In this document: piece by piece, positions 40,794 to 64,000 of the stretch
Numbering within the stretch: the first letter of the stretch is position 1
Layout: every line of letters starts with the position of its first letter
Source: Anaerolineales bacterium
Lineage (GTDB): Bacteria > Chloroflexota > Anaerolineae > Anaerolineales > UBA6663
Direction: 5' to 3'
Assembly (NCBI GenBank): GCA_020845955.1
Contig: JADLEU010000364.1
Span: 11,958-75,957 of the forward strand
Length of the DNA stretch: 64,000 nt
Program-made: the position numbers and the translations under genes
Notes under the pieces: generated by a model
What the model was told of the DNA's origin: nothing
Databases searched by the model: none
What the model saw: only the letters and a program-made list of their open reading frames with translations

Positions 40794-40844
40794 TTATTGG
40801 TATTGGCAACCGCAGCTTGCCCGGCTCGGCCAAGCCCGCCTGAT

Positions 40845-42671
40845 ATGACGACCGCACTACCCGCTCCGCCCAGCGCCCGCCGCTTTCGATGGCTGGCCCT
40901 GATGACGTCGATCGCCACGTTCCTGCTGGTTGTGCTGGGCGCCATTGTGCGCGTCACCGGCTCCGGTCTGGGCTGCGGCGAGCACTGGCCGCTCTGCAAT
41001 GGCGCCTGGTTTCCGCCCTTGGATCTGCCGGCTTTCATCGAGCTTTCGCACCGCGTCGTAGCTGCGGCGGTCTCGACGCTGATCGTGGCAACGGCCTACT
41101 TCGCCTGGCGCGACTTTCGGCGTGTGCGCTGGGTGGTCTGGCCGGCCGTTTGGGGCGTAGCCCTGCTGGTCATCCAGATTCTGCTGGGAGCCGCCACCGT
41201 GCGCTTGTCGCTGCCGCCGGCCCTGGTAGCGCTGCATCTAGGCAATGCCCTAGCGCTGTTAGGGCTGTTACTGATTGCGACCGTGATCGCTTTCCAGTAC
41301 GAACGCGATCCCCACATCGGCCAGGCGCTGTTCCACCTTGACGCCGTCAGCCGACTGGCGGTGGCGGCAGCGCTGGGGGTGTTTGCCCTGATTGTCACCG
41401 GCGCGCTGGTCACCGCTGGGCCCGCGGCAGCCGCCTGCGCTGGCTGGCCGCTGTGCGGCGGGGCGCTGGCGCCGGCCACGCCGTCCGGTTGGCTGCACAT
41501 GGGCCATCGCCTGGCCGCCGCCGCCATCGGTCTGCTGGTTTTGGCGGCCGCCCTGCAAGCCTGGCGGCTGCGCCGGGCCAACAGCCCGGTCTTCATTGCG
41601 GCTGTGGTGACGGGCTCGCTCTTCGCCGGACAGATCGCGGTGGGCGCCTTGAACGTGCTGCGGGGCTTTCCCATATTCCTTAACGGTCTGCACGTGGCCA
41701 CGGCTTCGGCCGTGTGGGCAGGCATGGTGGTGTTTGCCGTCCTGGCGCTGCAGTACGTGCGGCTGGCGCCTCTGGTCGACCAGGCGCGGGCGCCGGCCCG
41801 GCCGCTGCGCGCGGCGGTCGCGGATTACGCCGCGCTGACCAAGCCGGTGATCATGGCGCTGCTGCTGGCGACCACGGTGGCCGCCATGGTGGTGGCCGGT
41901 CATGGCTGGCCGCCGCTCGACCTGTTGGTGTGGACGCTCTTGGGCGGGGCGCTGGCAGCAGGCGGCGCAAGCACACTCAACCAGGTGATCGACCGCCATC
42001 TGGACAAAAACATGGCTCGCACCGCGCGGCGCCCTCTGGCGGCTGGGCGGGTGGATACCGGTGGCGCGTTGGCCTTTGGCCTGGCGCTGAGCATTGCGTC
42101 GTTCTACGTGCTCGCGCTCAACGTCAACGCGGCAGCGGCGCTGCTGGCGCTGGCCGGCAACCTCTACTACGTCGTCGGCTATTCGGTGCTGCTCAAGAAA
42201 CGCACCGTTCAGAACATCGTGATTGGGGGCGGGGCCGGCGCGATCCCGCCGCTCGTCGGCTGGGCAGCGGCGACCGGCCGCCTGAACATGGAAGCGATGT
42301 TCCTGTTTGCGCTGGTCTTCTTTTGGACGCCGCCGCATTTCTGGGCCCTGGCGCTGCTGAAAAAGAATGACTACGCGCGGGCGAGCGTGCCCATGCTGCC
42401 AGTGGTGTGGGGCGAAGCCGAAACACGGCGCCACATCGCGCTCTACACGCTGCTGGTGGTGGCCGTGTCGCTGCTGCTGACGCCGGCCGAGGTCGCGGGC
42501 ATGTTTTACCTGGGTTCGGCGGCGATCCTAGGGATGGGCTTCATCGTCTGCGCGTTGGCGCTGCTGCCCGGCGGCGGCGACAAAGTGGCCTGGCGGTTGT
42601 ACAAGTACTCCAGCTTGTACCTGGCGCTGATGTTCTTGGCATTGGTCGTCGATCGATTCGTGGGTGGGTAG
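40845..42671 (+). CDS. ctaB: Heme A synthase (CtaA/COX15) - heme O synthase (CtaB) fusion
   Basis: GLGCGEHWPLC, ELSHR, ACAGWPLC, HMGHR, then LTKP, DRHLDKNMARTARRPL, GAIPPLVGW, FFWTPPHFWAL. Confidence 0.92.
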   Translation: MTTALPAPPSARRFRWLALMTSIATFLLVVLGAIVRVTGSGLGCGEHWPLCNGAWFPPLDLPAFIELSHRVVAAAVSTLIVATAYFAWRDFRRVRWVVWPAVWGVALLVIQILLGAATVRLSLPPALVALHLGNALALLGLLLIATVIAFQYERDPHIGQALFHLDAVSRLAVAAALGVFALIVTGALVTAGPAAAACAGWPLCGGALAPATPSGWLHMGHRLAAAAIGLLVLAAALQAWRLRRANSPVFIAAVVTGSLFAGQIAVGALNVLRGFPIFLNGLHVATASAVWAGMVVFAVLALQYVRLAPLVDQARAPARPLRAAVADYAALTKPVIMALLLATTVAAMVVAGHGWPPLDLLVWTLLGGALAAGGASTLNQVIDRHLDKNMARTARRPLAAGRVDTGGALAFGLALSIASFYVLALNVNAAAALLALAGNLYYVVGYSVLLKKRTVQNIVIGGGAGAIPPLVGWAAATGRLNMEAMFLFALVFFWTPPHFWALALLKKNDYARASVPMLPVVWGEAETRRHIALYTLLVVAVSLLLTPAEVAGMFYLGSAAILGMGFIVCALALLPGGGDKVAWRLYKYSSLYLALMFLALVVDRFVGG

Positions 42672-43139: not shown

Positions 43140-45008
43140 ATGGGACGTTGGCGCCGGCTGGCTGGCCTGCTGGCTTTGTTGGTGGCCCTGCTGGCCACTC
43201 GCGTAGCCTGGGCACATCCCAGCCTCGTGCGGAGCGAACCGGCAGCCAATTCTACGCTGGAGCGTGCCCCGGCCCAGGTGGCTGTCTGGCTCGACGAAGC
43301 GATCGAGCCAGACTACGCGCACCTATCGGTCTACGATGCGCAGGGAGAGCGGGTTGACCGGCTTGACGCTCAATATGTGCCGGGTTTCCAGCCCTATGCC
43401 GGCGTGGCGGGAATTGTCGTCTCGCTGCCGCCGCTCCCGGACGGCAGTTACGTTGCGGTCTGGCGCGTCATTGCCGTCGGAGATGGCCATGCCGTGGGAG
43501 GCGCCTTTGCCTTTGGCGTCGGCGTGCCGCCCGATACGCGCTCGCCGCTACTGGCCGGCGCGGGCGTCGGCGCCGAGCCCGACCTGACGACTCAGCTTAT
43601 CCGATTCTTGACGCTGGCAGGCCAGGCCGTATTCCTGGGCGCGGCGGCCTTTCGCAGCCTGGTGTTCCAACCCGGCCTGGCTGCTGCTGGACGCGCCGGG
43701 TGGCTGGCCCGGCGAGAGGCCTTTTTGGTTGAGCATCGCCGCTGGCTGACGATCAGCGCCGATATAATCGTAGGCGCGTTAGTGACCGGCCTCCTCGGCG
43801 CTTTATATGTGCAGGCCCGGGCCACCCAGGTCTATTTCTGGGAGCTGTTTGACACGCGCTGGGGTATCATCTGGGCGGCGCGCGCCGTTGTGGTGCTGGC
43901 CGCTGCCTTCCTGATGGAAGGCTTGCTGGATGGCCGGCGTCCCGGGTGGCTGGGCTGGCTGTTGGGGTTTGGCCTGGTCCTGACGACGGCCCTGACCAGC
44001 CACAGCAGCGCCCGTCCAGGGCTGGCTGGCCCCATCGTCGATGTTGTCCATCAGACTGCGGCCGGGGTATGGGTGGGCGGGCTGGTGATGTTGGCGCTGG
44101 CCCTCGCCGCTGTGCACCGCAGCCAGCCAGCGGGGCCGGCGCGCGGATCTCTTAGCAGTGAGTGGGTGGCGCGGTTTTCCGGTCTGGCCGCGGCCAGTGT
44201 CGGAGCCTTGCTGGCGACGGGCCTGGTCCTAGCCATGCAGCAGGTGCCCGACTGGGATGGTCTGCTGCTGACGGCCTATGGACAGGCGCTGCTGATCAAG
44301 CTTGGCGTGGTTGGCGCGGCGCTGCTCTTGGCCGGCTATAATGCCCTGGGCGCGCGGCGGAGGCTGGTGGGCGCGGGCATCCGCCCGGCGGGCTGGGTGG
44401 CTGGCGAAGCGGCGCTGCTCGCCGGCGTGATTTTTGCCGCAGCGGCGCTGGTCGATCTGCCGCCAGCCACGGCGCTGGGGGCGTTTGAGAACGCGGCCAG
44501 CGATGCGGCGCCACTGCCCTATGAAGTCCAGGCGGGCGAGTTGCGGGTGGCGGGCGAGATTATTCCGGCCCGCCAGGCGAATAACGTCTTTGCCGTGACG
44601 GTAACCGATGCCAACGGCGAGCCGGTGCGCCAGGCCGTGGTTGAGTTGCGCTTTCAGGCTCGCGCGAGCGCCCTGGACAGGACGTACACGCTGGCAGAGA
44701 CGGGCGCGGGGGAATATATCACCTCTGGCCCCGGCCTGTCGCGCCAGGGGGCCTGGCAGTTGCTGGTCAGCGTGGCGCGCGCGGGGGTTCCCGTGGCCGA
44801 TTATGGCGCTGTCGATCTAGAGGTCGGGCTCGATAATACGGCGCGCCTGGCGGGAACGCCGCTGCCAGGCGCTCTGCGGGCCCTCGCCTGGTTCAACCAG
44901 TACGGTCGGCTCGTGTTGGGCTCGTTGATCCTTGTGGCGACCGCGGGCTGGAGTTGGTTTGCCGCACGCGCACTGCCTGATCGGCTGCGGCCCGGCTGGC
45001 TGGAGTAG
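43140..45008 (+). CDS. CopC-CopD-YtkA-like copper uptake/delivery protein
   Basis: Signal AWA then His1 (HPSLVRSEPA); WRVIAVGDGH; CopD SHS, HQTAAGVWVGG and LLIKL; C-terminal Ig-like domain. Confidence 0.87.
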   Translation: MGRWRRLAGLLALLVALLATRVAWAHPSLVRSEPAANSTLERAPAQVAVWLDEAIEPDYAHLSVYDAQGERVDRLDAQYVPGFQPYAGVAGIVVSLPPLPDGSYVAVWRVIAVGDGHAVGGAFAFGVGVPPDTRSPLLAGAGVGAEPDLTTQLIRFLTLAGQAVFLGAAAFRSLVFQPGLAAAGRAGWLARREAFLVEHRRWLTISADIIVGALVTGLLGALYVQARATQVYFWELFDTRWGIIWAARAVVVLAAAFLMEGLLDGRRPGWLGWLLGFGLVLTTALTSHSSARPGLAGPIVDVVHQTAAGVWVGGLVMLALALAAVHRSQPAGPARGSLSSEWVARFSGLAAASVGALLATGLVLAMQQVPDWDGLLLTAYGQALLIKLGVVGAALLLAGYNALGARRRLVGAGIRPAGWVAGEAALLAGVIFAAAALVDLPPATALGAFENAASDAAPLPYEVQAGELRVAGEIIPARQANNVFAVTVTDANGEPVRQAVVELRFQARASALDRTYTLAETGAGEYITSGPGLSRQGAWQLLVSVARAGVPVADYGAVDLEVGLDNTARLAGTPLPGALRALAWFNQYGRLVLGSLILVATAGWSWFAARALPDRLRPGWLE

Positions 45009-45050: not shown

Positions 45051-46331
45051 TTGCGCCGCTACTTGACCACCCTTATCCTGCTGTTTGCTCTACTGCTCGT
45101 GGGCGCGCTGGCGATTGCCCGTTTCTTGGGCCCTGAGCCGACGACACGCGGCGCTTACGTGCCGGCGTTGAGCGCTGACCCAGCTACCGCGCAGTGGCAG
45201 GCCCTCGTCTTTGCCGTGGGGCTTGCGGTGATTGTCATCACCACGGTTGGGCTGGGCATCGTCCTGGCCGTTACCTTCCTGCGGATCACGCGCCTGTTGG
45301 CCGCTCAGCCGGCCGGCGGATCCGCCGAACGCACGGCTGCGCCCAAACCCGCAGCTTCGGGCCAGGGTCTGGAAATCCCCTTCAGCAGCGATCTATCGGT
45401 CACGATCTTCTGGATCGTCGTGGCGCTCTTGGTGGTGGGATTCCAAGTGCTGCGCTATCTGAGCCAGCCGATCAGCGTGGCGCCGCTTGGCTATCTGCCT
45501 GGCGTGAGCCAAATGCTCCACATGCCGCTCTTTCGGCTGCCGGGCACTCACATCGATGGCCTACCGTCCTTTATCGTCGGCCCGGGGGACACCGTCACGG
45601 CGCTGCACATCTTGCTGGCGGTCCTGGTGGGCGCTATCGTGTCGGTCGTTGTGGTCGGCATCGGCCTGGCGCGAGGCTTTGCCTCGCTCGACACGACCGT
45701 CAGATTGGCGGACAAGCTGCCGCGCGTCTTGCCGGACCGGTTGATCGGGGCCGTCGAGCATCAGTTGGAAGCGCTGCGGCAGCCGAAGCCGAAACGGCGG
45801 CCGGGCAACCCAATCGACGGCCTGCTGATCGGCGTCAACGTCGTGCTGTTGTTCGTGATCGCCGGCATAGTGGCCTTTTACGTGGTGCCCTCCTACAGCG
45901 GCGTCGCCGCTGTCGACAACGCCGTTGAGGCCACGCGCGCGGCGGCGCTCGTCACGGCTACGCCGCCGAGCAGCGGCCCAGACACCGAGGGTCAAGCGCC
46001 GGCTCAAGTGATGCAGGCTGCGTTCGATGCGCTCCCGGCCGGCGATGCCGCGGCCGGCCAGCAGGTCTACCAGGGCGCTGGGGGGTGCACGGCCTGCCAT
46101 TCGCTGGATGCCAACGTAACCGGCGTGGGGCCCTCATTCGCAGGCCTGTCTCAGCGGGCGGCGTCGCGCCAGCCGGGCTATTCCGTCGAGGCCTATCTCT
46201 ACGAGTCGATCACGAACCCGAATGCCTATGTCGTGGAGGGGTTTCAGGGCGGCATCATGCCCCAGACCTTCAAGGACGTCCTCTCCCCGCAGCAGATCGC
46301 CGATGTGATCGCCTTCCTCAAGACGCAGTAA
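45051..46331 (+). CDS. Polytopic membrane protein with C-terminal monoheme cytochrome c
   Basis: About five TM segments, then CTACH, VGPSF, YLYESITNP, GIMPQTF. Confidence 0.85.
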   Translation: MRRYLTTLILLFALLLVGALAIARFLGPEPTTRGAYVPALSADPATAQWQALVFAVGLAVIVITTVGLGIVLAVTFLRITRLLAAQPAGGSAERTAAPKPAASGQGLEIPFSSDLSVTIFWIVVALLVVGFQVLRYLSQPISVAPLGYLPGVSQMLHMPLFRLPGTHIDGLPSFIVGPGDTVTALHILLAVLVGAIVSVVVVGIGLARGFASLDTTVRLADKLPRVLPDRLIGAVEHQLEALRQPKPKRRPGNPIDGLLIGVNVVLLFVIAGIVAFYVVPSYSGVAAVDNAVEATRAAALVTATPPSSGPDTEGQAPAQVMQAAFDALPAGDAAAGQQVYQGAGGCTACHSLDANVTGVGPSFAGLSQRAASRQPGYSVEAYLYESITNPNAYVVEGFQGGIMPQTFKDVLSPQQIADVIAFLKTQ

Positions 46332-48113: not shown

Positions 48114-49556
48114 CTATGACCGCCCGACGGTGTGCAGCAGGATGAAGTTGGCGGGCACGAACCGCGAAGGCGGCAGCCCGGCGATGACGATCACCTGCTG
48201 CCCCGCCCTGACCGGCGAATCGTAGAGCATGCCGGCCTCCACATGGGCCAACATGGCCTCGACGGTGTCGGCCTGTGGAATCAGATAGGCGGTGACACCC
48301 CAGAGCAGCGGCAGGCGCTGGTAAGTCTTGGGGTTGGGCGTGAACGCCAGGATCGGAACGTGAGGGCGCGCTTTGGACATAATGCGGGCGTTGCGGCCCG
48401 TCAGAGTGAAGATGGCAATGGCCGTGACATCGCGGTCGTGGGCCAGTTCGCGGGCAGCGCGCGCCAGGGCCACCGAGTCGTCGGAGGTGGACTCGGTGAC
48501 GCCGTGCCAACGGCCCCACTCCTCGCTGTGGGCTTCGGCCTCCTTGGTGATCGCAGCCATCATCCGCACCGATTCAATCGGATACTCGCCGGTCGCGGTT
48601 TCGCCCGACAGCATGACGGCGTCGCTGCCGTCGTAGATTGCGTTGGCGACGTCGGAGGCTTCCGCCCGGGTCGGGAGCGGGTTGGCAATCATGGACTCCA
48701 GCATCTGCGTAGCAGTGATGACGATCTTGCGCTGCCGGTTGGCGGCCTCGATGATGCGCTTCTGAGCTGTCGGGACTTCCTGCGGCGACAGTTCCACGCC
48801 CAGGTCGCCGCGCGCGACCATCACGCCGTCGGCCACCTGGAGAATGGCCTCCAGGTTTTCCAGGGCGGCCGGCTTCTCGAGCTTGGCGATCACGGGCAGC
48901 TTGGCCGCGTTGGGGTCAATCTCGGCCATGACGCGCTTGACGGCCGCCACGTCCTCCGGCCGGCGAACAAAACTGATGGCGACATAGTCGACGCCCTGAT
49001 TAAGGCCAAACTCCAGATCCTCGCGGTCTTTCTCGGTCAGGCTGGGGATGTTGACCATGACGCCTGGCAGGTTGATGCCCTTATGCTCCTTGAGCAGCCC
49101 GCCATGCACGACGCGCGTATGCACATCTCTGGCCTCCACGCGTTCGACCTGGAGCTCCAGGCGGCCGTCGTCGAGCAGCAAGCGGTCGCCGCGCTGCACA
49201 TCACCCGGCAGACCGCCGTAGGTTGTGGAGACCTCTGCCGCGCTGCCTTCGATGTCGCGGGTCGTGATGGTGAACGGCGCCTGGTCCTTGAGCAGCACCG
49301 CTTCGCCGCCCAGCAGCGTTCCGGTGCGGATTTTGGGGCCTTGCAGATCCTGGAGAATGGCGACGGGCTTGGAGAGGCGGCGCGAAATGCGGCGCACGGC
49401 GGCGATATTAGCGGCGTGCTCAGCGTGGGTGCCGTGCGAGAAGTTCAGGCGGGCGACGTTCATTCCGGCAGCGACGAGCGCGGCCAGCGTGTCTTCCGAG
49501 TTCGTCGCGGGCCCCAGGGTACAAACGATTTTGGTGCGGCGGAGATGGCCGTCCAC
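48114..49556 (-). CDS. pyk: Pyruvate kinase
   Basis: TKIVCTLGPA, RLNFSHG, DLQGPKIR, IAKLEK, MVARGDLGVE, ATQMLESM, MLSGETA; GTG 49556 with GAGG RBS. Confidence 0.97.
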   Translation of the reverse strand: MDGHLRRTKIVCTLGPATNSEDTLAALVAAGMNVARLNFSHGTHAEHAANIAAVRRISRRLSKPVAILQDLQGPKIRTGTLLGGEAVLLKDQAPFTITTRDIEGSAAEVSTTYGGLPGDVQRGDRLLLDDGRLELQVERVEARDVHTRVVHGGLLKEHKGINLPGVMVNIPSLTEKDREDLEFGLNQGVDYVAISFVRRPEDVAAVKRVMAEIDPNAAKLPVIAKLEKPAALENLEAILQVADGVMVARGDLGVELSPQEVPTAQKRIIEAANRQRKIVITATQMLESMIANPLPTRAEASDVANAIYDGSDAVMLSGETATGEYPIESVRMMAAITKEAEAHSEEWGRWHGVTESTSDDSVALARAARELAHDRDVTAIAIFTLTGRNARIMSKARPHVPILAFTPNPKTYQRLPLLWGVTAYLIPQADTVEAMLAHVEAGMLYDSPVRAGQQVIVIAGLPPSRFVPANFILLHTVGRS

Positions 49557-49601
49557 GTATAACCTCAAGACTGCAGGCACAATTTGGAGCTGGATTGCGG
49601 A

Positions 49602-49653: not shown

Positions 49654-50679
49654 CTATTCGCCCATGCGCCGATCATCGGATGGGGCTGCCGGGGGCAGCG
49701 CCACGGCCGGCGGCGCCAGAGGTTTTGAACGCCGCGACGATCGACCGCTGACGAGCAGCGTCCAGGTCCGATGGGCTAGCCCGCTGCCCAGGCTTTTTTC
49801 GCGCGTTACCAGCAGAACCGAGGCGGCCAGCAGCCCGGCGCCCAGCCACTGGCTTGCGCTGAGGGTTTCACCCAGCCACAACAAGGCCGCGACCACGGTG
49901 ACGAGGAGCTCGCTCAGCCCAATCAAGGCCGTCTGAACCCCACCCAGGCGCTTGACCCCAGTGAAGAGCGATACGCGCGACACCAGGGTGACGAGGGTGA
50001 GGAGCAGCACGGCCTGCCAGGCGGCGGTGCTGGGCGGACTGGCAGGCACCCCGGCCAGGCTGTAGCCGATGGATACGGCGATGGCCATCCCGGTGAGGTT
50101 GTACAGCGCCACGGTTGGCGCCGGGACATCAAATAGAACCCGCTGGCTGATAACAAGGTGGAACGCATACAGCATACCCGCGCCCAGCATCAGCGCGGCG
50201 CCCAGCCGATCGGGCGCGGTCTGGCCGTGGCGGGTGAGCAGGTAGACGGCCGCCAGCGCCAGCAGCATGCGCAGGGTGGTGAAGGTTGAGATCCTCTGGC
50301 CGTCGAGGCGCGAGAACAGGGTCAGAAAAACGGGGTAAAGCGCATAGAGCAGCTGCGCCAGCGAAGCGTCGAGACGGCCCAATCCAGTGTAGTACATCAA
50401 CGATCCCAGGCCGTTGACGATACCTGCCGCCAGGCAGCCGAGCAAGCCAACCGGGTAGATGTAGACGTGGCGACGGCCGAGGAGTAGGAAGAGCGCCCAC
50501 AGGCTGACCATGGCGAACACCGTGCGCAGCGTGACCACCGCCAGAGGCGGCGCGCCGGCCAGCATGGCCTGTTTGCCGAAGATGGGCGCCAGGCCCAAGG
50601 TCCCGGCCGACAGCAGCGCCGCGAAGACTCCCTGCGCCTGATCCTGGTTCCAGCGGCGGGGCCTGAGGTGGGCGAACAT
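49654..50679 (-). CDS. EamA/DMT family transporter
   Basis: Ten TM segments in two repeats; ASLAQLLYALYP, SELLVTVVAALLWLGE. Confidence 0.88.
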   Translation of the reverse strand: MFAHLRPRRWNQDQAQGVFAALLSAGTLGLAPIFGKQAMLAGAPPLAVVTLRTVFAMVSLWALFLLLGRRHVYIYPVGLLGCLAAGIVNGLGSLMYYTGLGRLDASLAQLLYALYPVFLTLFSRLDGQRISTFTTLRMLLALAAVYLLTRHGQTAPDRLGAALMLGAGMLYAFHLVISQRVLFDVPAPTVALYNLTGMAIAVSIGYSLAGVPASPPSTAAWQAVLLLTLVTLVSRVSLFTGVKRLGGVQTALIGLSELLVTVVAALLWLGETLSASQWLGAGLLAASVLLVTREKSLGSGLAHRTWTLLVSGRSSRRSKPLAPPAVALPPAAPSDDRRMGE

Positions 50680-50726
50680 AGTGAGCGAGCCGGCGCGGCT
50701 GCAAGGCGCGCCAGCGGCACCGCCCC

Positions 50727-52436
50727 TCAGGTCAGGGCGCCGAGCACATCCGCCAACAGGTCATCATCCATAAACGAACCCTTCTGCAGGAGCGAATCGA
50801 TCTGTCCATTCAGCCGATGGCGCTCGTCCGGTGCCAGCTCCTTGGCCGTGACCACAATTACGGGGAGGTCGCGCGTCGCGCTGTCGGCTCGCAGCGCGTC
50901 GAGCACGGCAAAGCCGTCCATATCCGGCATCATAAGATCGAGCACAACCAGGTCGGGATGGATCTCGCGGATCAAGCGCAGACCGTCGCGGCCATTGCCG
51001 GCCTCGGAGAGCTGGTAGGCACCCCTGGCCTGCAGGATACGGCGGATCAGGCGGGTGGCCTCCGGGTTGTCATCGATGATGACCACCGAGCGAACCCGCT
51101 CGTCCAGGCGCTGGAGGGCGGCTAGCAGGCCCTCTCTTGGGCGGGCCGCCATCTCCCGCGCGGCCCCGGCGCCTGGCTCGGCCTCGTGCGCGGGCAGCTC
51201 CACGTCGCGCGCCCAGCCCTCGCCGAGGATTTCGTTCTGGATCGGGAAGGTATGGCCGCTGCAGTTGACGACCACTACCTCGTCGGGCCGAATCAGCCCT
51301 GCGCGCACGAGCTTGATCAGCCCGGCGAAGGCCACGGCGGCGGCCGGCTCCATCGACAGGCCTTCCAGTTTGGCTAGGACGTGCAAGGCGCGATAGGCCT
51401 CCTCGTCGCTGACGCTCAGCATGGTCCCGCCATGGGTGCGGATATGATCGCGCAGCATCTGATAGCCGCGGCCCGGGTTGCCGGTCGCGAGCGTCGCAAT
51501 GTGCGTGCGCGGGCTGTGGACGACGTCGGGCGCCGCGCGGTTCTGCGCGAAGGCCGTCACCATGGGGGCGCAGCCTTCGGCCTGGATGCAGGCCAGCGCC
51601 GGCAGCTTGTCGACCAGGCCCATGGACTTGAGCTCAACGAAGCCCTTCATGACACCCGCCGGCCCGAGGCCGCCGCTGACCGACTGAACGTACCAATCGG
51701 GGGCCCGCCAGGGTGGCGGGCCGGCCGCGCCGTTCGAGGGCACGCCCAGCGCGCGAGCCAACTCTTCGGCCAACTCGAAGGCAATGGTCTTCATGCTCTC
51801 GACCGCGGCGATGCTGCGCAGGCCGCGGTCGTAGTACATGCCGCGCTGAGTGGCAAACTGCGCGGCCAATTCCTTGGCGCGGTCATAGGTCGAGGCGACT
51901 TTGATGACCTGGGCCCCGTAAAGGGCGCATTCGCGCATCTTTTCGGCCGGCACGAGCGAGGTCAGAAAGGCGTAGAGCTTGATGCCGGCCCGGGCGCAAT
52001 ACGCGGCGTAAGAAATGGCCACGTTGCCAGTGGAGGCCACCACCGCCTGCGTCAGGTTGTTCTCTTTCATCACCGACACGGCCAGGGCGGCCTGCCGGTC
52101 TTTGAACGAGCCGGTTGGACCCTGGCGCTCGTCCTTGACGAACAGGTTGGGGCGCCCCAGCATCAGGCCCAGGCTGGCGGCGCGCACCAGCGGCGTGCCG
52201 CCTTCGCCCAACGTGACGATATTATCGGGGTCGTTCAGCGGCAGCAGTTCACGAAAGCGCCAGAGGCTGTGGCGGCGCTGAACCGCCTGGCGGATGAGTT
52301 GCGGCCCCAGACTGGCGTAGTCATAGCGCGCTGACAGCCACTCGCCGCTGCAATGGGGGCACTGAAAGGCAGTCGACGGCAAGGCCGCCGAGCTCTGGCC
52401 GCAGTCGGCGCAGACTAAGGCGAAGTTCCCAGGCAT
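50727..52436 (-). CDS. Threonine synthase-like fold-type II PLP enzyme fused to a C-terminal receiver (REC) domain
   Basis: CxxC..CxxC N-terminus, LGEGGTPL, GSFKDR (Lys at 52101-03), ASTGN, EGLSMEPAAA; then IIDDNP, VLDLMMPDMDG (Asp at 50937-39), VVTAKE, LQKG. Confidence 0.9.
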   Translation of the reverse strand: MPGNFALVCADCGQSSAALPSTAFQCPHCSGEWLSARYDYASLGPQLIRQAVQRRHSLWRFRELLPLNDPDNIVTLGEGGTPLVRAASLGLMLGRPNLFVKDERQGPTGSFKDRQAALAVSVMKENNLTQAVVASTGNVAISYAAYCARAGIKLYAFLTSLVPAEKMRECALYGAQVIKVASTYDRAKELAAQFATQRGMYYDRGLRSIAAVESMKTIAFELAEELARALGVPSNGAAGPPPWRAPDWYVQSVSGGLGPAGVMKGFVELKSMGLVDKLPALACIQAEGCAPMVTAFAQNRAAPDVVHSPRTHIATLATGNPGRGYQMLRDHIRTHGGTMLSVSDEEAYRALHVLAKLEGLSMEPAAAVAFAGLIKLVRAGLIRPDEVVVVNCSGHTFPIQNEILGEGWARDVELPAHEAEPGAGAAREMAARPREGLLAALQRLDERVRSVVIIDDNPEATRLIRRILQARGAYQLSEAGNGRDGLRLIREIHPDLVVLDLMMPDMDGFAVLDALRADSATRDLPVIVVTAKELAPDERHRLNGQIDSLLQKGSFMDDDLLADVLGALT

Positions 52437-52446
52437 GCGGAGTCGA

Positions 52447-56451
<4,005 letters not shown>

Positions 56452-57195
56452 ACACGCTCAATTCATCAGCCAGCGCGCGGTATTGCTGCGCCGCGCGGCT
56501 GCTGGGCGCATAGCTCGTGATCGGCTGGCCAAAGACCTGGCTTTCGCGGAGCTTGGGGTCAATGTCGATGGTGGTATCCAGGACGGCTGCCCCAAAGGCG
56601 CCGCGCAACTGGTCGAGGATGCCGCGATGGACGCGGTTGCCGCGGTCGAACATGGTGACGACGATGCGGTAGCTGAGCTGCGGGTTCGTTCGGGCCCGCA
56701 CGCGGCGGACCAGGTCCAGCACTTCGCCCAGGCCATGGGTTGAGAAATACTCGCATTGGGTGGGGATGAGGAGCATGTTGGCCGCCGTCAGGGCTGTATA
56801 GGGGATAGCGCCGGTCGACGGTGGGCAATCGACGAGCACGATTTCAAAGGTGTGGGCGGCGGCCAGGGCGCTGCGCAGCGTATACTCGTAATCCTGGCGC
56901 ACGGTCAAGAAGCGCTCCACTAGGTGCATAGCAGAGTTGGCCGGCAGCACATCGAGGCCGGCGATGGCGGTGGCGCGGCTGACGCTGACGGCACTGAGGT
57001 TGCCCAGGAGCACGTCGGCGGCGCCACGGCGCAGGCCGTTGACCGGCAGGCCGAGGGCGAGGCTGAGGTTGGCCTGCGGGTCCAGGTCCACGGCTAGCAC
57101 CTCGAAGCCGCGCTCGACCATGGCCGCCCCCAACGACACGCAAGTCGTGGTCTTGGCCACGCCCCCCTTCTGGTTGCTGACGGCGATCACGGTCC

Positions 57196-60100
57196 TCACG
57201 GGCCGTTATCCCCGCGGGCGGTTTCGCCTCCGCCAGCGCCATTGGACGGGTGGGCGCCGTTGCCGGCCGCCGAACCCGGCTCGGCCCCCGTGAGCGGGCG
57301 CAGCCCGCCGGTTCCGCGCCGCCGCTGGGGGGCGCGGAACCCGCCGCTGGGCAAATCCAAACGGACCGCCACCCGCGTGACGCCAAGCGCCTGGCGAAGC
57401 TCGGACACCGCGGTGCGCAGCATCCCGTCCATGTCTTCCGCTGCCCGGATTTTGCTGGTAATTTCGACCACCAGGCGCTCCCGGCGGGCTTGGCGCGCGG
57501 TCTGGTTGAACAAGCGCGCGTTCTGCAGGGCCACGGCCAACTGGTCGGCGATGGCGACCAAGATGGCGACGTCTTCGGGGCCAAACGCGTGGGGCGCGGT
57601 GCTTTGCACGTCGAGGGCGCCCACGATGGAAGCGCCGCTGAGCAGCGGCACCACCGCTTCCGCGCGCGTTTCCGGCAGCAGCGGGTTCTTGAGGTGGTTT
57701 GGATCGGTGGTCACGTCCTGCGCCACGACCGGCTGCTGGGTGGCCGTGGCCAATCCGACCAGCGACCGCGACCCCACGGCCAAGGCGTGCTGGCGGGCCT
57801 TGAGGATCGCGCCGGCGTCGCCGGTGGATTCGCGCAGGACAGCCGCCTGGCCGTCCGGATCGATCATGAAGACGGAGGCGTGATAGTAGCCAAAGCGCTC
57901 GCGGATCAGGTTAACGGTCGTGCGCAGCAGCTCGTCGCGGTCCAGCGAGGCGGTCATGGCCCGGGCCACGTCAGCCGCGGCGGCCAGCAGTTGGGCTCGG
58001 CGCTGCGCGGTTGCCTGCGCGGCCTTGAGCGCTGCCTCGGCCTGTTTGTGGGCAGTGACGTCGAACAGCATGCCGCGGATCGTCAGTGGACGGCCAGATC
58101 CTTGGGCGAAGGCCTGCGACTGGTTGTGGAACCAGATGACGCGCCCATCGCGGGTGAGCGAGCGATACTCGATATCGAGCGCGGCGCCGAGGGCGTTCTG
58201 GCGCGCCACTTCCTTGAGCACCCCCGCGCGGTCGTCGGGGTGCAGCAGCTTGACCCACAGCTCGGGATCCGCCAGCCACTCCTCGGGCGTATAACCCAGC
58301 AGCGGCTGTACTTGCGGGCTGATGTAGGTAGTCTGCCGCAAGGCCCCGCCGGCGAGCGCTTCCGCGGCGTAGATGATGGCCGGCAGCTGCTCCACCAGCG
58401 AGCGATAGCGCTCTTCGGCCGCCCGCAGCTGCTCGTTGGCCGCTTTGCGCTCGGTGATGTCCTCCGATATCCCGACCATGAACTTCGGCTGGCCGCTCTC
58501 GTCCAGGATCGGGATTTTGCGCGTGTGCAGCCAGCGGGTGCCGCGCCCGCGGGTCTGGATCGGCTCTTCGGCGATCTCGATCATGCGCCGGGCCTCGAGG
58601 ACCTCGCGGTCCTTGCTGAAGAAGTGATGGGCCTCCTCGACCGGGAAGACGTCCGAATCGCTCTTGCCGAGCATTTCCTCGCGCGACAGGCCGACCAGGC
58701 TCTCGGCCGCGCGGTTCCAGCGCACGAAGCGCAAGTCCTGAGCGTCTTTCACAAACAGCATCGAGGGCAGATTCTCGATGATCGAATCGAGGAAGCTCTG
58801 CGCCTGCTGGGTGGCAGCCAGCAGCTGCGCGTTGCGCAGGGCGACAGCGAGCTGGTCCGCCATCGTCTGCAGCACGGCCACGTCGGCTTGGCCGAAGGCG
58901 CCCGCCAGGGTCGACTGGACGTCCAGCGCGCCCAGCACGTGGCCGCCAACGACCAGCGGCAGGGCGATCTCGGAGCGCGTATCGGGGAGGAGCGGGTTGG
59001 CGAAGCGGACCGGCTCGGCGCCCACATCCAGCGCAATGCGCGCGCGCCGGTTGGCCGTGGCCCAGCCGACCATCGAGTTGCCGCCCACCTCCAGCTTGTG
59101 CCCGCGTTCGAGCAGCGCTCGGCCGGCCTCGCCGGTGGCGTGGCGCAGCTCCGCCCAGGCGCCGCTGTCGTCGACGAGGAACAAGGCCGCGTATTGCACG
59201 CCCGCGCTGCGCGCGAAGCGCTCACGGATCAGCTCGACCGATTGGATGATCAAGTCGTCGGGGTTCAGGACCGAGATGGCGGTGCGGCTGACGTCGGCCG
59301 CAGTAGCCAGTTGCTCGGCTCGGCGCTGGGTCTCCGCGAACAGCCGCGCGTTCTGCAGCGCTGCGACCATCTGGTAGGCCACCGCGTTGAGCGCGGTCAC
59401 TTCGCGCTGGCCGTACTGGTTGTACTGGTAGCTCTGCACGGAGAGTACGCCGCCCACCTCGGCGCCGAAGTACAGCGGCAGGAAGAGCAGCGAGGCCGAG
59501 ACCTTGCTGGCATCGCCGATCGCCCGATCGGGCGAAAGCTCGCGCTGGGCGACTTCCGCGGGTGTGCGGTTGATGACGACTGTCTCGCCGGTGTGCAGCA
59601 CGCGCTCAATCATGCCGCCCGGCGCGGGCAGGCGCGGCCCCTCGGCGTAGCGCTGGCCGCTATCGTAGATGAGGGGCGTGTTCTGCAGGCCCGTGCTGCG
59701 GTCGTAAAGCGTGACAAAGAATGCGTCCAGTGGGGTCAGCCGCTGCAGGTGCTGGTAGACGGTTTCCAAGACCTGTACCGGCTCCAGCGTCTGCGACACG
59801 GCGCGGGCGAAGTCGTTGAGCACGGCCAGCTCGGACGCGCGCTTTTCGGTCTGCTGGAAGAGCCGAGCGTTCTGCAGCGCCACGCCGACTGTAGCGGCCA
59901 CGGTGGTGAGCAGGCGCGCGTCGGCTTCGCTGAAGGCGCCTTCCTGGTCCAGATCCTGGACGCTGATGGCGCCCAAGACCTCGTCGCCGGCCAGGACCGG
60001 CACGGCCAGGAACGAGCGCGCCGGGCGTCCTGAGACGCGGGCGCCAAGCTCAGCCACACGCTGCTCGACGTCGCGGACGAGCAGCAGCGGCTGCCGGGTC

Positions 60101-62388
60101 TGAATGACGATCGACGTCAGGCCCTGCCCAAGCGGGAACGGATCGACCTGGATGCGCTGGCCGCCATCGACCATGTAGGGCATCGAGATCATGTTGGTGG
60201 CGCGGTCGTACAGGGCCAGGAAGGCGTTGTCGCGCCGGAAGACCTCGCGCAGCTTGTCGACCACGAGCTCAGTGAGCGCGCTCAAGTCCAGGCGCCCCGA
60301 CAGCGCCTGGCTGATGTCGTTCAGAATGACCAGCTCCGATAAGCGCTGCTGCGTCTCCGCCAACAGGCGGGCGTTTTCGAGGGTAGCGGCGGCCTGGGCG
60401 GCGTACAGCAGCGCGATCTGCTCGTCGTCGGCCGTGAAGGCCCGGCCTGGGGCCGAGTGCGTGAGCACCAGCACCCCAAGCCCTTGACCTTGCCAGGTCA
60501 TGGGGACGGCCAGGGCGGCCTGGACCGGCGCGCCGGCCGTGCCCTCGCGCGCCTGAGACCAGTCCGCCAGCTCACCAGCCCGCAAGGGCTGGCCGGCGCG
60601 GATGACCTGCCCGGCCAGGCCCTCGCCGTGCTTGAGGCGCTGTCCGACTGATGCCGGCGGCCCGAGGCCAACGCTAGCGCGCAATTCAATCTCGTCTGGG
60701 CTGCCGAGCAGCCAGACTGCAGCGCCATCCGCCCCGAACAGCCGCTGCGCTCCACGGCAGATCTGGTCGAGCGCCTGCTGCGGGCTGAACTGGGGACCGG
60801 TCAGCTCGAGCGCGCTTTCCGACAGGCTGGCGAGCTGCTGCGCGCGGAGGCGCGTTTGCTCGAAGAGCTGGGCGCTTTCCAGGGCCAGCGCCATGCGGTC
60901 GGCAACCGCCGCGACCAAGTCCAGGTCCTCACCCGTCCAGGCCTCGCCCTCGCGTTTCAGCTCGAGCACGCCCAGTTGCTGGGCGCCGAAGCGCAGCGGC
61001 ACCTGGATCGCGCTGCTGGTTGACGTGCCGGCGCTCGGCGAGGCCGCCGGCTCGGCTTCGGACAGGGGGCGCACGTCGATGCCGTCGTAGCGGAAGGCGG
61101 CCGCGCCCGCCGGGCCGCCCCAGCCCGCGGCTTGGCGGGTGGCCTGCTGCAGGATCTGAAGCTCGGCTAGCCGGCGCTCGGTTTCCTGCAGCAGGCGCGC
61201 GTTGTCCAGCGCCAGGCCCAACTGGTCAGCCAGGCTTTGCAGCACCTCGACGTCTTCCGCGCTAAAGGCATCGCTGTCGACGGACTGCACGTCCAGGGCG
61301 CCCAGGAGGACGCCGCGCGCGCGCAGCGGCACGGCCGCTTCCGAGCGCGTGTCGGCCAGGTCGGGGTTGACGAAGTGCAGCGTGTCGGCGCTGACCTGGC
61401 GCGCCACACGGGACTGTCCCGTGCTGGTGACGTGCCCGACGATGCCCTCCTGGCCTACCCGCAGGCGGTGGCTGCGCGCCAGCAGGCGCTGGCCGCCGGG
61501 GCTGTTTGTGGCGCTGAGAATCGCCCATTCGCGGGCATCATCCAGGAGGAACAGGCCGGTGTGGTAGTAGCCAAAGCGCTCGCTGATCCAGTTGACACTC
61601 GTCTGGAGGAGCTCATCGACGCTGTGCGTGGCAGCGGCAGCGCGGGCCACCTCGGCGCTGAGCGCCAGCAAGGCCGCGCGGCGTTCAAGCGCCCTGGCCT
61701 GGACTTCCTGCTCGCGGCGCGCGGCCTCGGCCTCGCGCCCGGTGGCTTCCAGCGCGGCCGATTCCAGTGCCAGCCGGGCCTGCGCGGCCTCCAGGATCGC
61801 CTTGTCCTGCGCAGCCGCGGCGGCGAACCGCCGGGTGGCAAGAAACTGGCGCTGCGGGATGATCAAGCCGACCATGACCAGCAGCAGGCTCATGGCGCCC
61901 GCCAGCCAATTGGCGAACGAGGCGGGGTCGTTGGGGGCGCCGACCAGCAGGCCGGTGCTGAAGCCGGCCGCGGTCGCCAGCCAGGCGGCTAGGGCCAGCG
62001 CCGCCGCCGTGATGCCGGCCCGCGTGCCGAACACCGCGGTGGCAATCACCGCGAAGGCCGCCAGATAGAGGCGCCCGGCGCCAGACAGACCAAGGGTCAC
62101 CAGGCTGATCACCGCCACGGCCAGCAGCAGCGCCAGGAAGACGCCAGCGCGCCAGGCGAAGGGCAAGCGCCGCCCAAGCGCCAGCCCAGCCAGAACGAGG
62201 AACATGACGCCATAGAGCGCGTTCGCGATCCAATCGGGATTGGCGAGCGAGGACAGAATATTAGCGACGAGTGCCAGCAGCGCCACGCCGAGGGTGCCGC
62301 GGACGATCTGATGCAGGGCCTCTTCGCGAGTGGCCAGCAGCGCGTCCGTTTGGGCGGCGGCGCCCGGCGGGGCCAACCAGCGCCTCAC
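57196..62388 (-). CDS. 1730-aa membrane sensor: about 5-6 N-terminal TM, six GAF, one mini-GAF, two PAS, no catalytic output domain
   Basis: Repeated ...QLAVALxNARL GAF ends, RFGYYH GAF subfamily, two PAS/PAC (DITERK, DVTAHK); ends in a GAF N-terminal fragment. Confidence 0.9.
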   Translation of the reverse strand: MRRWLAPPGAAAQTDALLATREEALHQIVRGTLGVALLALVANILSSLANPDWIANALYGVMFLVLAGLALGRRLPFAWRAGVFLALLLAVAVISLVTLGLSGAGRLYLAAFAVIATAVFGTRAGITAAALALAAWLATAAGFSTGLLVGAPNDPASFANWLAGAMSLLLVMVGLIIPQRQFLATRRFAAAAAQDKAILEAAQARLALESAALEATGREAEAARREQEVQARALERRAALLALSAEVARAAAATHSVDELLQTSVNWISERFGYYHTGLFLLDDAREWAILSATNSPGGQRLLARSHRLRVGQEGIVGHVTSTGQSRVARQVSADTLHFVNPDLADTRSEAAVPLRARGVLLGALDVQSVDSDAFSAEDVEVLQSLADQLGLALDNARLLQETERRLAELQILQQATRQAAGWGGPAGAAAFRYDGIDVRPLSEAEPAASPSAGTSTSSAIQVPLRFGAQQLGVLELKREGEAWTGEDLDLVAAVADRMALALESAQLFEQTRLRAQQLASLSESALELTGPQFSPQQALDQICRGAQRLFGADGAAVWLLGSPDEIELRASVGLGPPASVGQRLKHGEGLAGQVIRAGQPLRAGELADWSQAREGTAGAPVQAALAVPMTWQGQGLGVLVLTHSAPGRAFTADDEQIALLYAAQAAATLENARLLAETQQRLSELVILNDISQALSGRLDLSALTELVVDKLREVFRRDNAFLALYDRATNMISMPYMVDGGQRIQVDPFPLGQGLTSIVIQTRQPLLLVRDVEQRVAELGARVSGRPARSFLAVPVLAGDEVLGAISVQDLDQEGAFSEADARLLTTVAATVGVALQNARLFQQTEKRASELAVLNDFARAVSQTLEPVQVLETVYQHLQRLTPLDAFFVTLYDRSTGLQNTPLIYDSGQRYAEGPRLPAPGGMIERVLHTGETVVINRTPAEVAQRELSPDRAIGDASKVSASLLFLPLYFGAEVGGVLSVQSYQYNQYGQREVTALNAVAYQMVAALQNARLFAETQRRAEQLATAADVSRTAISVLNPDDLIIQSVELIRERFARSAGVQYAALFLVDDSGAWAELRHATGEAGRALLERGHKLEVGGNSMVGWATANRRARIALDVGAEPVRFANPLLPDTRSEIALPLVVGGHVLGALDVQSTLAGAFGQADVAVLQTMADQLAVALRNAQLLAATQQAQSFLDSIIENLPSMLFVKDAQDLRFVRWNRAAESLVGLSREEMLGKSDSDVFPVEEAHHFFSKDREVLEARRMIEIAEEPIQTRGRGTRWLHTRKIPILDESGQPKFMVGISEDITERKAANEQLRAAEERYRSLVEQLPAIIYAAEALAGGALRQTTYISPQVQPLLGYTPEEWLADPELWVKLLHPDDRAGVLKEVARQNALGAALDIEYRSLTRDGRVIWFHNQSQAFAQGSGRPLTIRGMLFDVTAHKQAEAALKAAQATAQRRAQLLAAAADVARAMTASLDRDELLRTTVNLIRERFGYYHASVFMIDPDGQAAVLRESTGDAGAILKARQHALAVGSRSLVGLATATQQPVVAQDVTTDPNHLKNPLLPETRAEAVVPLLSGASIVGALDVQSTAPHAFGPEDVAILVAIADQLAVALQNARLFNQTARQARRERLVVEITSKIRAAEDMDGMLRTAVSELRQALGVTRVAVRLDLPSGGFRAPQRRRGTGGLRPLTGAEPGSAAGNGAHPSNGAGGGETARGDNGP

Positions 62389-64000
62389 CGGCCGGCCTCC
62401 GGCTGGCCGGGCGCGTCCGCGCCGGCCAGCCGCACCACGACTTCGGTGGCGCCCAGCGCGCGGCCCAACTCACGCATGCCGCTCTGGACCACCGCGGAAG
62501 GATTGAGCGTGGCGCGCAGCTGGTAAGTGATGTCGTTGATGAGCTGTTCGCTCAGCCGGCGGCGCTGAGTTTCTTCGAGCAGGGCGGCGTTCTCCAGGGC
62601 GGCGGCGAGCTGGGCCGAAATCGTGCCGAGGGCCGCCTGCTCTTCCGCCGTCCACTCGTTGGGGCGCCGCCCATGCAGTTCGATAGCCCCGACGACTCGG
62701 TCGCGCAGCCGCAGCTCGATCTGGAGCGGCTCGGCGCTGGCGCTGCTCAGGGTCGCGTCGCCGGGAACCGCTTCGAACACGCTCTCCCGGCTTTGGCCGC
62801 GCAGCAGGCCGCGCCAGCTGTTGCCGGCCAGGCGCTGGTAGAGACGGCTCACTTCGTCCAGGCTCGCCTGGGTCTGCTGGAACAGCTCGGCATTTTCGAT
62901 GGCGACGCTGAGTTGGTCGGCCAGTGTCTGCAGGACCTGAATGCTGCTAGGGTCAAAGGCGTTGGGTTCGCGACTCTGCACGTCGACGGCGCCGAGCAGC
63001 CGGTCACCGGAAATCAGCGGGATGGCCAGCTCGGAGCGCGTCTCGGGCAGGAGCGGGTTCTTGAAGTAGAACGGGTCCTCGGCGACGTCGAGCGCGACGC
63101 GCGGCTGGCGCTGGCTGGTGACCCAGCCAATCAGAGACTGCGAGCCCACCGCCAGGCGGTGGGCGCGCGCCTTGAGCTGCGCGCCCACCGGGCCGGTGGA
63201 TTCGCGCAGCACCGCGTACTGCCCGGGCGCATCCAGCAGGAAGATCGAGGCGTGGTAGAAGCCGAAGCGGTCGCGGATCAGGTTCAGCGCCAGCCGCAGC
63301 AGGTCATCCAGGTTGCGCAGCGAGGCGGTCGCCCGGCTGATGTCGGCCGCGGCCTGGAGTTGGGCGGTGCGGTCGCTGACGCGCTGTTCGAGCGAGGTGA
63401 CGAGCTCGTTGAGGCGGGCGGTCATGCCATTGAAGGCTTGGGCCAGCAGGCCGATCTCGTCGCGGCTGTCGACCTCGGCCTGCACGGTCAGGTCGCCGCC
63501 AGCGACCTGACCGGCGGTGGCGGTCAGGCGCCCAATGGGGTCGGCCAGGACCTGTGCGGCAGCCACCGCCACGGCGGTGACGATCAGGGCAATGATGGCT
63601 GCCAGGGTGACGGTGGCCTGGGTCTGCTGCTGGACGGGCGCCAGGAATACGGCCGTAGGCTGAAAAAAGGCCACCTGCCAGGGAAAGCTGGCCAGGGTGA
63701 TGACGGCCGCCTGGCTCTGGCGGCCGCCGGCCGCCGCGTCGACGGCGGTGAAAAAGGGCTGGGCGCCGGCCTGGGACAGGCTGCCGGCCAGCTGCGGCAT
63801 CTGAGCTGAATAGGCGAAATCAGGCCGGCTAGGCAGCCGAGACTGGGCCTGGAGGCGGCTGATTTCGCCCGCCGTGGCCGGTCCGACTAGCCGATAGAGC
63901 GCGGTTGGATCGGCGCCGTGCGCCACAACCATCAGGTTCTCGTCAAAGACGGCGCCAAACGAATCCGGCCCGGCCAGCCCCTGGGTCTGTTCGACGATGC
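62385..64000 (-). CDS. Membrane sensor (extracellular/Cache-like, TM, HAMP, GAF, mini-GAF), 5'-truncated by the window; no output domain
   Basis: Frame is open from 63998; TM, then PIGRL..DEIGLLAQAFNGM HAMP; RFGFYH GAF; same C-terminal fragment as the downstream gene. Confidence 0.88.
   Translation of the reverse strand, partial: IVEQTQGLAGPDSFGAVFDENLMVVAHGADPTALYRLVGPATAGEISRLQAQSRLPSRPDFAYSAQMPQLAGSLSQAGAQPFFTAVDAAAGGRQSQAAVITLASFPWQVAFFQPTAVFLAPVQQQTQATVTLAAIIALIVTAVAVAAAQVLADPIGRLTATAGQVAGGDLTVQAEVDSRDEIGLLAQAFNGMTARLNELVTSLEQRVSDRTAQLQAAADISRATASLRNLDDLLRLALNLIRDRFGFYHASIFLLDAPGQYAVLRESTGPVGAQLKARAHRLAVGSQSLIGWVTSQRQPRVALDVAEDPFYFKNPLLPETRSELAIPLISGDRLLGAVDVQSREPNAFDPSSIQVLQTLADQLSVAIENAELFQQTQASLDEVSRLYQRLAGNSWRGLLRGQSRESVFEAVPGDATLSSASAEPLQIELRLRDRVVGAIELHGRRPNEWTAEEQAALGTISAQLAAALENAALLEETQRRRLSEQLINDITYQLRATLNPSAVVQSGMRELGRALGATEVVVRLAGADAPGQPEAGR

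Follow-up and report, generated by a model that had tools for sequence, protein, structure and literature searches.

A threonine synthase-like enzyme with a fused receiver domain, encoded with a soluble kinase and kinase-less receptors in a conserved operon of Anaerolineae

What could a bacterial signalling operon control when the best-linked target of its kinase is an enzyme of amino-acid metabolism? The question is raised by a stretch of DNA from an Anaerolineales bacterium (GenBank assembly GCA_020845955.1; 6.06 Mb in 431 contigs, estimated completeness 100%), namely positions 11,958 to 75,957 of the 120-kb contig JADLEU010000364.1 (C364:11958-75957). These 64,000 nucleotides (nt) are the window analysed here, and window positions are used unless stated otherwise. 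Within 49654-64000, six co-oriented minus-strand genes encode two receptors, a ParA-type ATPase, a hybrid histidine kinase, a fusion of a pyridoxal 5'-phosphate (PLP) enzyme with a receiver domain, and a transporter. The end point of a two-component system is usually seen as a transcription factor, a second-messenger enzyme or a motor; in this case a PLP enzyme of amino-acid metabolism carries the phosphorylation switch. Every sequence test identifies the operon as a two-component system, and no description of its output domain was found in the literature searched.

Read in the direction of transcription, the six genes encode a kinase-less dCache-HAMP-GAF receptor (62385 to beyond 64000; the C-terminal 537 codons of a gene open at the window end), a kinase-less MASE11 multi-GAF/PAS membrane receptor of 1730 amino acids (aa) (57196-62388; Pfam, transmembrane (TM) scan and GAF profile), an orphan Soj/ParA-type ATPase of 260 aa (56417-57199; Pfam AAA_31 and CbiA), a soluble hybrid histidine kinase of 1334 aa (52447-56451; Pfam, GAF profile and motifs), the fusion of a threonine synthase (ThrC)-like PLP enzyme with a C-terminal receiver, of 569 aa (50727-52436; Pfam PALP and Response_reg), and an EamA/DMT-family transporter of 341 aa (49654-50679), the last conserved gene of the unit. 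The MASE11 receptor gene shares 4-nt GTGA start/stop overlaps with both its neighbours (62385-62388 and 57196-57199), the ParA and kinase genes overlap by 35 nt (56417-56451), and gaps of 10 nt (52437-52446) and 47 nt (50680-50726) separate the kinase gene from the fusion gene and the fusion gene from the EamA gene. No DNA-binding, cyclase, CheA, CheW or MCP domain is found in the six genes by Pfam and NCBIfam searches, and counts of intrinsic terminators are no higher than the shuffled expectation. A sequence-only reading of the same stretch had described these six genes with the same overlaps, gaps and domains, and had noted the lack of a DNA-binding regulator, a cyclase and chemotaxis signatures in the visible part; this description is confirmed by the open reading frame (ORF) list, by translation and by the domain searches. 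The next 20 kb past the window were read as L001, and L001 coordinates are used for the upstream genes. The truncated first receptor gene is L001 1343-4081 (minus strand), extends to the extrapolated window position 65123 (C364:77080) and encodes 912 aa in full. It is preceded, after a gap of 154 nt, by a gene for a second dCache-HAMP-GAF receptor of 658 aa (L001 4236-6212, minus strand).

The arrangement is not peculiar to this genome. Among 61 relatives from many families of the order, about 40 have the PLP-REC fusion in full length, often as two paralogues. About 57 full-length matches are found in species-representative genomes, all of them from Chloroflexota (labelled Anaerolineales, Anaerolineaceae, Caldilineaceae, Ardenticatenales, Thermoflexales and Villigracilaceae), and the best 120 matches in a large protein collection all combine PALP and REC, the named ones being labelled Anaerolineales or Chloroflexota. 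Where JGI/NCBI labels among these top 120 homologues read threonine synthase or generic PLP enzyme, they are probably wrong or too general. Related loci are carried by metagenome-assembled genomes labelled Caldilinea aerophila and Bellilinea. In a neighbourhood survey, which combined annotated neighbourhoods with tblastn/ORF clustering of 60 loci, 50 of the 56 loci with enough sequence have a histidine-kinase core directly upstream of the fusion, and 2 more have a REC-kinase directly downstream. The gene after the fusion encodes EamA in 22 loci and a stand-alone receiver in 28, one or the other being found in 49 of the 50 loci in which the downstream sequence was long enough. Dozens of further Anaerolineae genomes share this order, so that the gene arrangement is far beyond chance. 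The gene order that the sequence-only reading had proposed to look for in Chloroflexota is seen among the relatives, with the kinase and fusion genes nearly always side by side.

In a tree of the fusion proteins, these form one well-supported family, separated from the plain PRK08197-type ThrCs by a stem of 3.45 substitutions per site, and the sub-clades coincide with the locus types. The layout of the clade of the window is receptors, ParA, hybrid kinase, fusion and EamA. Both flanks are visible in 22 loci of this EamA/ParA type, of which 18 have ParA and EamA, 3 have EamA alone and 1, in a broken assembly, has ParA alone. EamA follows the enzyme throughout this clade; the 22 of 50 loci where it does so directly all belong to the EamA/ParA clade, plus L090. 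The layout of a second clade is kinase, fusion and receiver(s), then a plain ThrC or a GNAT acetyltransferase, and in further clades an extra receiver is fused. One to three stand-alone or extra fused receivers always follow the enzyme in the other-clade loci. A full-scoring PRK08197 ThrC gene is found after the receivers in six loci of another clade, a seventh (L091) having only a fragmentary match, and a GNAT acetyltransferase is encoded at that downstream position in six other loci. In L065, L066, L068, L078, L085 and L087 (at about 12000-13300 in each), the sole above-cut-off PRK08197 ThrC gene of the genome follows the fusion and receiver genes directly. These ThrC and GNAT neighbours keep the fusion family tied to amino-acid metabolism. 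Two variants are also recorded: a receiver-adenylate/guanylate cyclase gene is located directly upstream of a ThrC-REC-REC gene in L071 (8896-9966), and one homologue of 844 aa (P0112) has three receivers in a row.

The features of both halves of the fusion protein are well preserved. The Pfam matches have E-values of 1.6e-63 (PALP) and 8e-21 (Response_reg). The N-terminus is Zn-ribbon-like (CxxC...CxxC) and the PLP lysine, K112, is in an SFKDRQ motif (52092-52109). A long flexible linker and a conserved helix precede the C-terminal receiver, which has the residues D455/D456, D500 (50925-50948), T530 and K552, with coordinates checked by translation. When compared with 12 homologues down to 53% identity, K112, D456, D500 and K552 are invariant and T530 and D455 nearly so, and the STGN motif and most scaffold motifs of the PLP domain are invariant as well. 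The closest solved proteins are threonine synthases, the solved ThrCs being those of Aquifex (2ZSJ), Mycobacterium tuberculosis (2D1F), Thermus (1UIM/1V7C), Bacillus subtilis (6CGQ) and Arabidopsis (1E5X). The fold, the SFKDR lysine motif, STGN and most scaffold motifs are those of ThrC, and the CxxC...CxxC N-terminus is as in the PRK08197 type. The fusion differs from ThrC, however, in its scores, which are below the curated cut-offs (PRK08197, 250.9 bits versus 303; TIGR00260, 151.9-153.5 versus 167.1), in its long-branch clade, in its fused receiver and in seven changes from residues shared by the Aquifex, M. tuberculosis and Thermus enzymes (G64Q, T88V, N154R, S155G, N157R, R160A and N188G, Thermus numbering). 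The residues V139, R204, G205, A211 and G255 of the fusion correspond to T88, N154, S155, R160 and N188 of the Thermus enzyme, which we take to bind the phosphate of the substrate. Two new arginines, R204 and R207, are invariant in the fusion, which suggests that an anionic group could still be bound, in another manner. Judged by its sequence, the enzyme is an active-looking, diverged ThrC paralogue; its substrate would probably be a different anionic amino acid, on which it would carry out a beta/gamma elimination or replacement.

Does the enzyme nevertheless make threonine? The genome has five genes of the threonine-synthase family, the fusion included: a canonical ThrC (301 bits; C425:3219-4172), a full-scoring Zn-ribbon ThrC of the PRK08197 type (564 bits; C229:26922-28169) and two weaker paralogues (C369:60212-61333 and C226:14371-15312). 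Since the canonical and the full-scoring PRK08197 ThrC are encoded elsewhere in the genome, the fusion is dispensable for threonine synthesis. A role as the housekeeping threonine synthase was rejected on the sub-cut-off scores, the seven changed residues and the canonical ThrC elsewhere. It is also conceivable that the fusion is a genuine isozyme of threonine synthase regulated by phosphorylation, EamA being an RhtA-like valve for threonine or homoserine in a system that tunes the threonine supply. Such an isozyme would agree with the best family matches and the closest structures, with the ThrC-type gene beside the fusion in six loci of another clade (seven with L091), and with the Escherichia coli EamA-family exporters known for threonine, homoserine and cysteine; it is judged rather unlikely in view of both missed cut-offs, the seven changed positions, the long stem branch and the two ThrC genes already present. 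Regulation of a ThrC has a precedent in plants, where the enzyme is activated allosterically by S-adenosylmethionine. The EamA protein (Pfam 7e-27) has two repeats and about eight hydrophobic segments. It resembles the EamA/RhtA exporters of E. coli in its two EamA repeats and in the amino-acid enzyme encoded next to it, but it is below the equivalog cut-offs of NCBIfam (35.5 bits versus 270 for YedA and 55.3 versus 230 for 2A78). Most likely it would carry the product or the substrate of the enzyme across the membrane.

How the enzyme might be switched is suggested by the kinase. This protein consists of PAS, two full GAFs, two C-terminal-half GAFs, HisKA, HATPase, REC1 (D1130) and REC2 (D1262), the residues of both receivers being intact, and no hydrophobic segment is found in it by the TM scan, as expected for a soluble protein. 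The H-box is SHELRTPL, with H837 (53923-53949), and the N, G1, F and G2 boxes are present (NLLSNAAKF, DTGPGI, LFEQF and GGTGLGL). The kinase thus has the H-box and the ATP-binding boxes, and the enzyme receiver the acidic pair, Asp, Thr and Lys, of a two-component pair. The identity of the enzyme receiver is 48% to REC2 and 34% to REC1, which suggests that the kinase receivers and the enzyme receiver may be competing acceptors for one histidine. In the whole genome there is no match to the Hpt domain (PF01627), controls being positive in 9 of 14 genomes, and none to the CheW domain, for which the control genomes are positive. A classical relay and a chemotaxis pathway are therefore excluded, and no relay step is expected. 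This is in agreement with the earlier description of a non-chemotaxis system, as the operon also lacks CheA, CheW and MCP. The kinase would autophosphorylate at H837 and would pass the phosphoryl group directly to D500 of the enzyme receiver, and phosphorylation of D500 would change the activity of the PLP enzyme. This 6-Mb genome is rich in hybrid kinases, yet it is without any Hpt or CheW domain.

The CheB methylesterase, the PleD/WspR diguanylate cyclases and the HD-GYP protein RpfG are response regulators with enzymatic output. The fusion resembles them in that an intact receiver is fused to a catalytic domain and encoded beside its kinase, but what the receiver would control here is a fold-type II PLP enzyme of central amino-acid metabolism, to which it is attached at the C-terminus. 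No regulator in which a receiver is paired with a PLP enzyme was found in the literature searched, nor was this operon, in agreement with the statement of the sequence-only reading that no characterised system of this composition was known to its author.

The three receptors have no transmitter of their own: two are of the dCache-HAMP-GAF type and one is the MASE11 multi-GAF/PAS protein. The 912-aa receptor has about six N-terminal hydrophobic segments, followed by dCache, TM, HAMP, GAF, a half GAF and a GAF stub. The MASE11 receptor has MASE11 (5 TM), six full GAFs, one half GAF, two PAS, a last GAF and a stub. The C-terminal stubs of all three receptors match only the first 30-37 or so GAF positions (57358-57444 and 62418-62513 in the window and approximately 4340-4450 in L001, all on the minus strand). 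The half GAFs, on the other hand, consist of the C-terminal half only (aa 791-852 of the 912-aa receptor, aa 448-512 of the MASE11 receptor, and aa 240-308 and 741-812 of the kinase). A permissive Pfam search for a hidden transmitter, Hpt or STAS domain in the receptor tails (at E up to 10) and the kinase N-terminus reveals GAF fragments and PAS only. The receptors are not pieces of one split or frameshifted giant gene, because the next genes begin with their own membrane or ATPase N-terminus and because paralogues and orthologues have kept the tails. It is possible that the half GAFs and the GAF stubs are elements by which receptors and kinase are coupled, and coupling of this kind is also suggested by variants in other lineages. 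In L035 and L036, MASE11-8xGAF-HisKA-HATPase-REC is one protein of 2090-2100 aa, encoded directly upstream of the fusion; in L063, dCache-HAMP-GAF-HisKA-HATPase is one protein, and L079 has a similar, longer one, the genes of both again lying directly before the fusion. These Rosetta-stone fusions are the best available evidence for separate receptors acting on the soluble kinase. Because the same receptor architectures are fused to the kinase in other lineages, we infer that the receptors signal to the kinase by direct contact: the three transmitter-less membrane receptors would all pass their state to the one GAF-rich hybrid kinase. Coupling of many sensors to one kinase by contact is also the principle of RetS/LadS acting on GacS and of the RsbR paralogues of the stressosome with RsbT, although the domains are unrelated and the tails here consist of GAF halves and stubs.

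The ParA ATPase is a conserved member of the operon. It has a Walker A motif (KGGVAKT, residues 11-17, 57146-57175) and matches AAA_31 (3e-43, 148 bits) and CbiA (1e-18, 68 bits). Its closest solved structures are 4pfs, 8ray and Thermus Soj (1wcv), and it is of the ordinary small Soj type. Each EamA/ParA-type locus in which the kinase is soluble (about 22 loci) encodes a ParA homologue of 40-75% identity at this position. Where a ParA gene is adjacent (22 loci), the kinase always lacks an N-terminal membrane segment, and in the three EamA loci without ParA the kinase either carries MASE11 (L035 and L036) or stands without separate receptors (L038). The Soj-type ATPase could help to assemble or position the receptor-kinase complex. 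A DNA-partition or housekeeping ATPase that is in the cluster by chance, or a set of genes that are neighbours without functional coupling, is considered very unlikely. Such an ATPase might well be of the ordinary Soj type, and the score of 97.6 bits against NCBIfam ParA_partition is below the cut-off of 180, yet no feature marks a signalling role; soluble kinases of other clades also manage without ParA. On the other hand, the gene lies between the receptor and kinase genes, overlapping them by 4 and 35 nt at start and stop codons, its position is kept in about 22 loci at an identity of just 40-75%, ParA is lost exactly where the kinase is membrane-anchored or without separate receptors, and no ParB-like gene is found among its neighbours by a Pfam scan of the window and of the upstream and downstream genes.

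ParA-positioned chemosensory arrays are known in Rhodobacter sphaeroides (PpfA with TlpT) and in Vibrio (ParC/ParP). The operon shares with these arrays kinase-less receptors that share one soluble kinase, an orphan ParA in the operon and small receivers. It differs from them in the lack of an MCP domain, CheA, CheW, CheB and CheR in the operon and of CheW in the genome, in having a class I HisKA kinase and receptors built from GAFs, and in its best-linked target, which is an enzyme and not a motor. Of the features that define the chemosensory family (MCP signalling domain, CheA and CheW), none is found in the proteins of the operon.

Where does the operon begin, and is the enzyme its only output? 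Upstream of the second dCache receptor gene, on the same strand, are the genes of two stand-alone receivers, REC156 (L001 6229-6699, 16-nt gap to the receptor gene) and REC125 (L001 6715-7092, 15-nt gap to REC156). Their receiver residues are intact, and REC125 is closest to DivK. Beyond REC125 is a gap of 143 nt with a promoter-like site (TTTACA-17-GATAAT, L001 7193-7165, minus strand), the sole such site found. The next genes, all on the minus strand, encode a Ser/Thr protein kinase of 718 aa with one TM segment (L001 7236-9392), a HAMP histidine kinase (L001 9576-11081, 183-nt gap) and an OmpR-type regulator, the partner of the HAMP kinase (L001 10873-11616). The Ser/Thr kinase, which adjoins the operon in the three closest genera only, was rejected as a core part for this limited adjacency, the 143-nt gap and the promoter-like site. 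The OmpR regulator and the HAMP kinase were rejected as the core output since they are set off by the gaps of 143-183 nt and the promoter-like site. A classical output gene just upstream in the same operon was one of the findings by which the sequence-only reading was to be judged; such a gene is present on the same strand, but, separated as it is by these gaps, it is not counted in the unit.

REC156 is found in 43 of 61 relatives, as a single copy and with 70-91% identity except for one at 56%. In all 27 genomes with both genes on one contig it is on the same strand as the fusion, 4-28 kb upstream, and the presence or absence of the two is concordant in 56 of 61 genomes (39/1/4/17, Fisher p = 2e-10). 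In view of this synteny and co-occurrence, the conserved unit is read as two receivers, then a variable number of receptor genes, then kinase, enzyme and exporter. The unit proposed in the sequence-only reading is indeed tightly packed and conserved, but it is not of six genes, as the second dCache receptor, REC125 and REC156 lie beyond 64000. Of the three components compared across relatives, REC156 is the best conserved, the enzyme being 52-79% identical. The enzyme is therefore not the sole candidate output, and the claim that a metabolic enzyme is the only output of the operon does not stand.

This conservation also bears on a different assignment of roles. The ThrC-like domain could be an input or a phosphate sink, which binds an amino-acid metabolite and tunes its own receiver, while the output goes by contact through REC156 and the DivK-like REC125. 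DivK, to which REC125 is closest, regulates allosterically as a single domain; REC156 is more conserved than the enzyme, single-copy and always syntenic; extra receivers always follow the enzyme in the other clades; and the kinase has two further receivers, one of which is a close paralogue of that of the enzyme. An input or sink role is nevertheless considered unlikely, if the most serious of the alternatives weighed here: the active-site motifs of the PLP domain are invariant over a wide divergence, as for a working enzyme, the EamA, ThrC-paralogue and GNAT neighbours suit a product-forming reaction, and the domain attached to a receiver is normally the regulated part.

Taken together, the scheme that we favour is that the receptors signal by contact to one soluble kinase with ParA as organiser, that direct phosphorylation of D500 alters the enzyme, that EamA moves its product or substrate, and that the remaining receivers (REC1 and REC2 of the kinase, REC125 and REC156) would be competing acceptors, feedback modulators or a second output. 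This scheme as a whole is judged to be somewhat better than evenly probable. The sequence-only reading, in which the ATPase positions a receptor-kinase complex that controls synthesis and export of an amino-acid-derived product, is partly supported, positioning and export being its conjectural parts. Several points weigh against the scheme. The real output might be REC156, the conservation of which exceeds that of the enzyme. The receptor tails contain only GAF fragments, and the route by which the receptors signal is not evident from them. The correlation between ParA and soluble kinases amounts to two or three evolutionary events and so lends modest support, and the soluble kinases of the other clades are without ParA. 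EamA is absent from the other fusion clades, so that export is not general to the fusion family. The changes at ThrC-conserved positions bar naming the reaction of the enzyme. An AlphaFold2 model of the fusion, built from a 12-sequence alignment, has a mean predicted local distance difference test score (pLDDT) of 66, which is inadequate for a fold search, and is uninformative on how the receiver would act on the enzyme. Finally, RNA-labelled public runs give only short contigs of close relatives, with 95-100% identity, two of the libraries may contain DNA, and co-transcription is not demonstrable from these runs.

The fusion of a receiver with this enzyme is kept across a whole class of abundant, little-studied filamentous bacteria of sludge, sediments and soils. 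The operon raises the general question of how transmitter-less receptors signal to a kinase, and outside chemotaxis it provides an example of a ParA ATPase linked to a signalling complex. Should the product of the enzyme be exported, cells would have a new way to release a metabolite under regulation or to signal to one another. Even if only threonine-related tuning is concerned, the operon would show directly, and in a testable form, how a sensor kinase can control a biosynthetic enzyme after translation. A more far-reaching idea, which we regard as quite doubtful, is that GAF receptors, soluble kinase and ParA form a multi-receptor signalling assembly of a third type in bacteria, next to the chemoreceptor arrays and the stressosomes, coupled by the GAF tails, the purpose of which would be signal-gated synthesis and export of an amino-acid-derived cell-to-cell signal in filamentous bacteria. 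New here are the full extent of this copy of the operon, the synteny and co-occurrence of REC156, the lack of any Hpt or CheW, the link of ParA to a soluble kinase, and the receptor-kinase fusion variants.

Downstream of the operon, a pyruvate kinase gene (48114-49580, minus strand) starts 73 nt after the EamA gene and is kept there only in the four closest loci (that of the window and L034-L036). Beyond it the genes are on the opposite strand. They include a neighbouring oxidase cluster, syntenic with L034, in which the haem A synthesis proteins CtaA and CtaB are fused into one protein of 624 aa (40797-42671, plus strand), followed by a CopC-CopD-YtkA fusion (43140-45008, plus strand) and a cytochrome c protein (45051-46331, plus strand).

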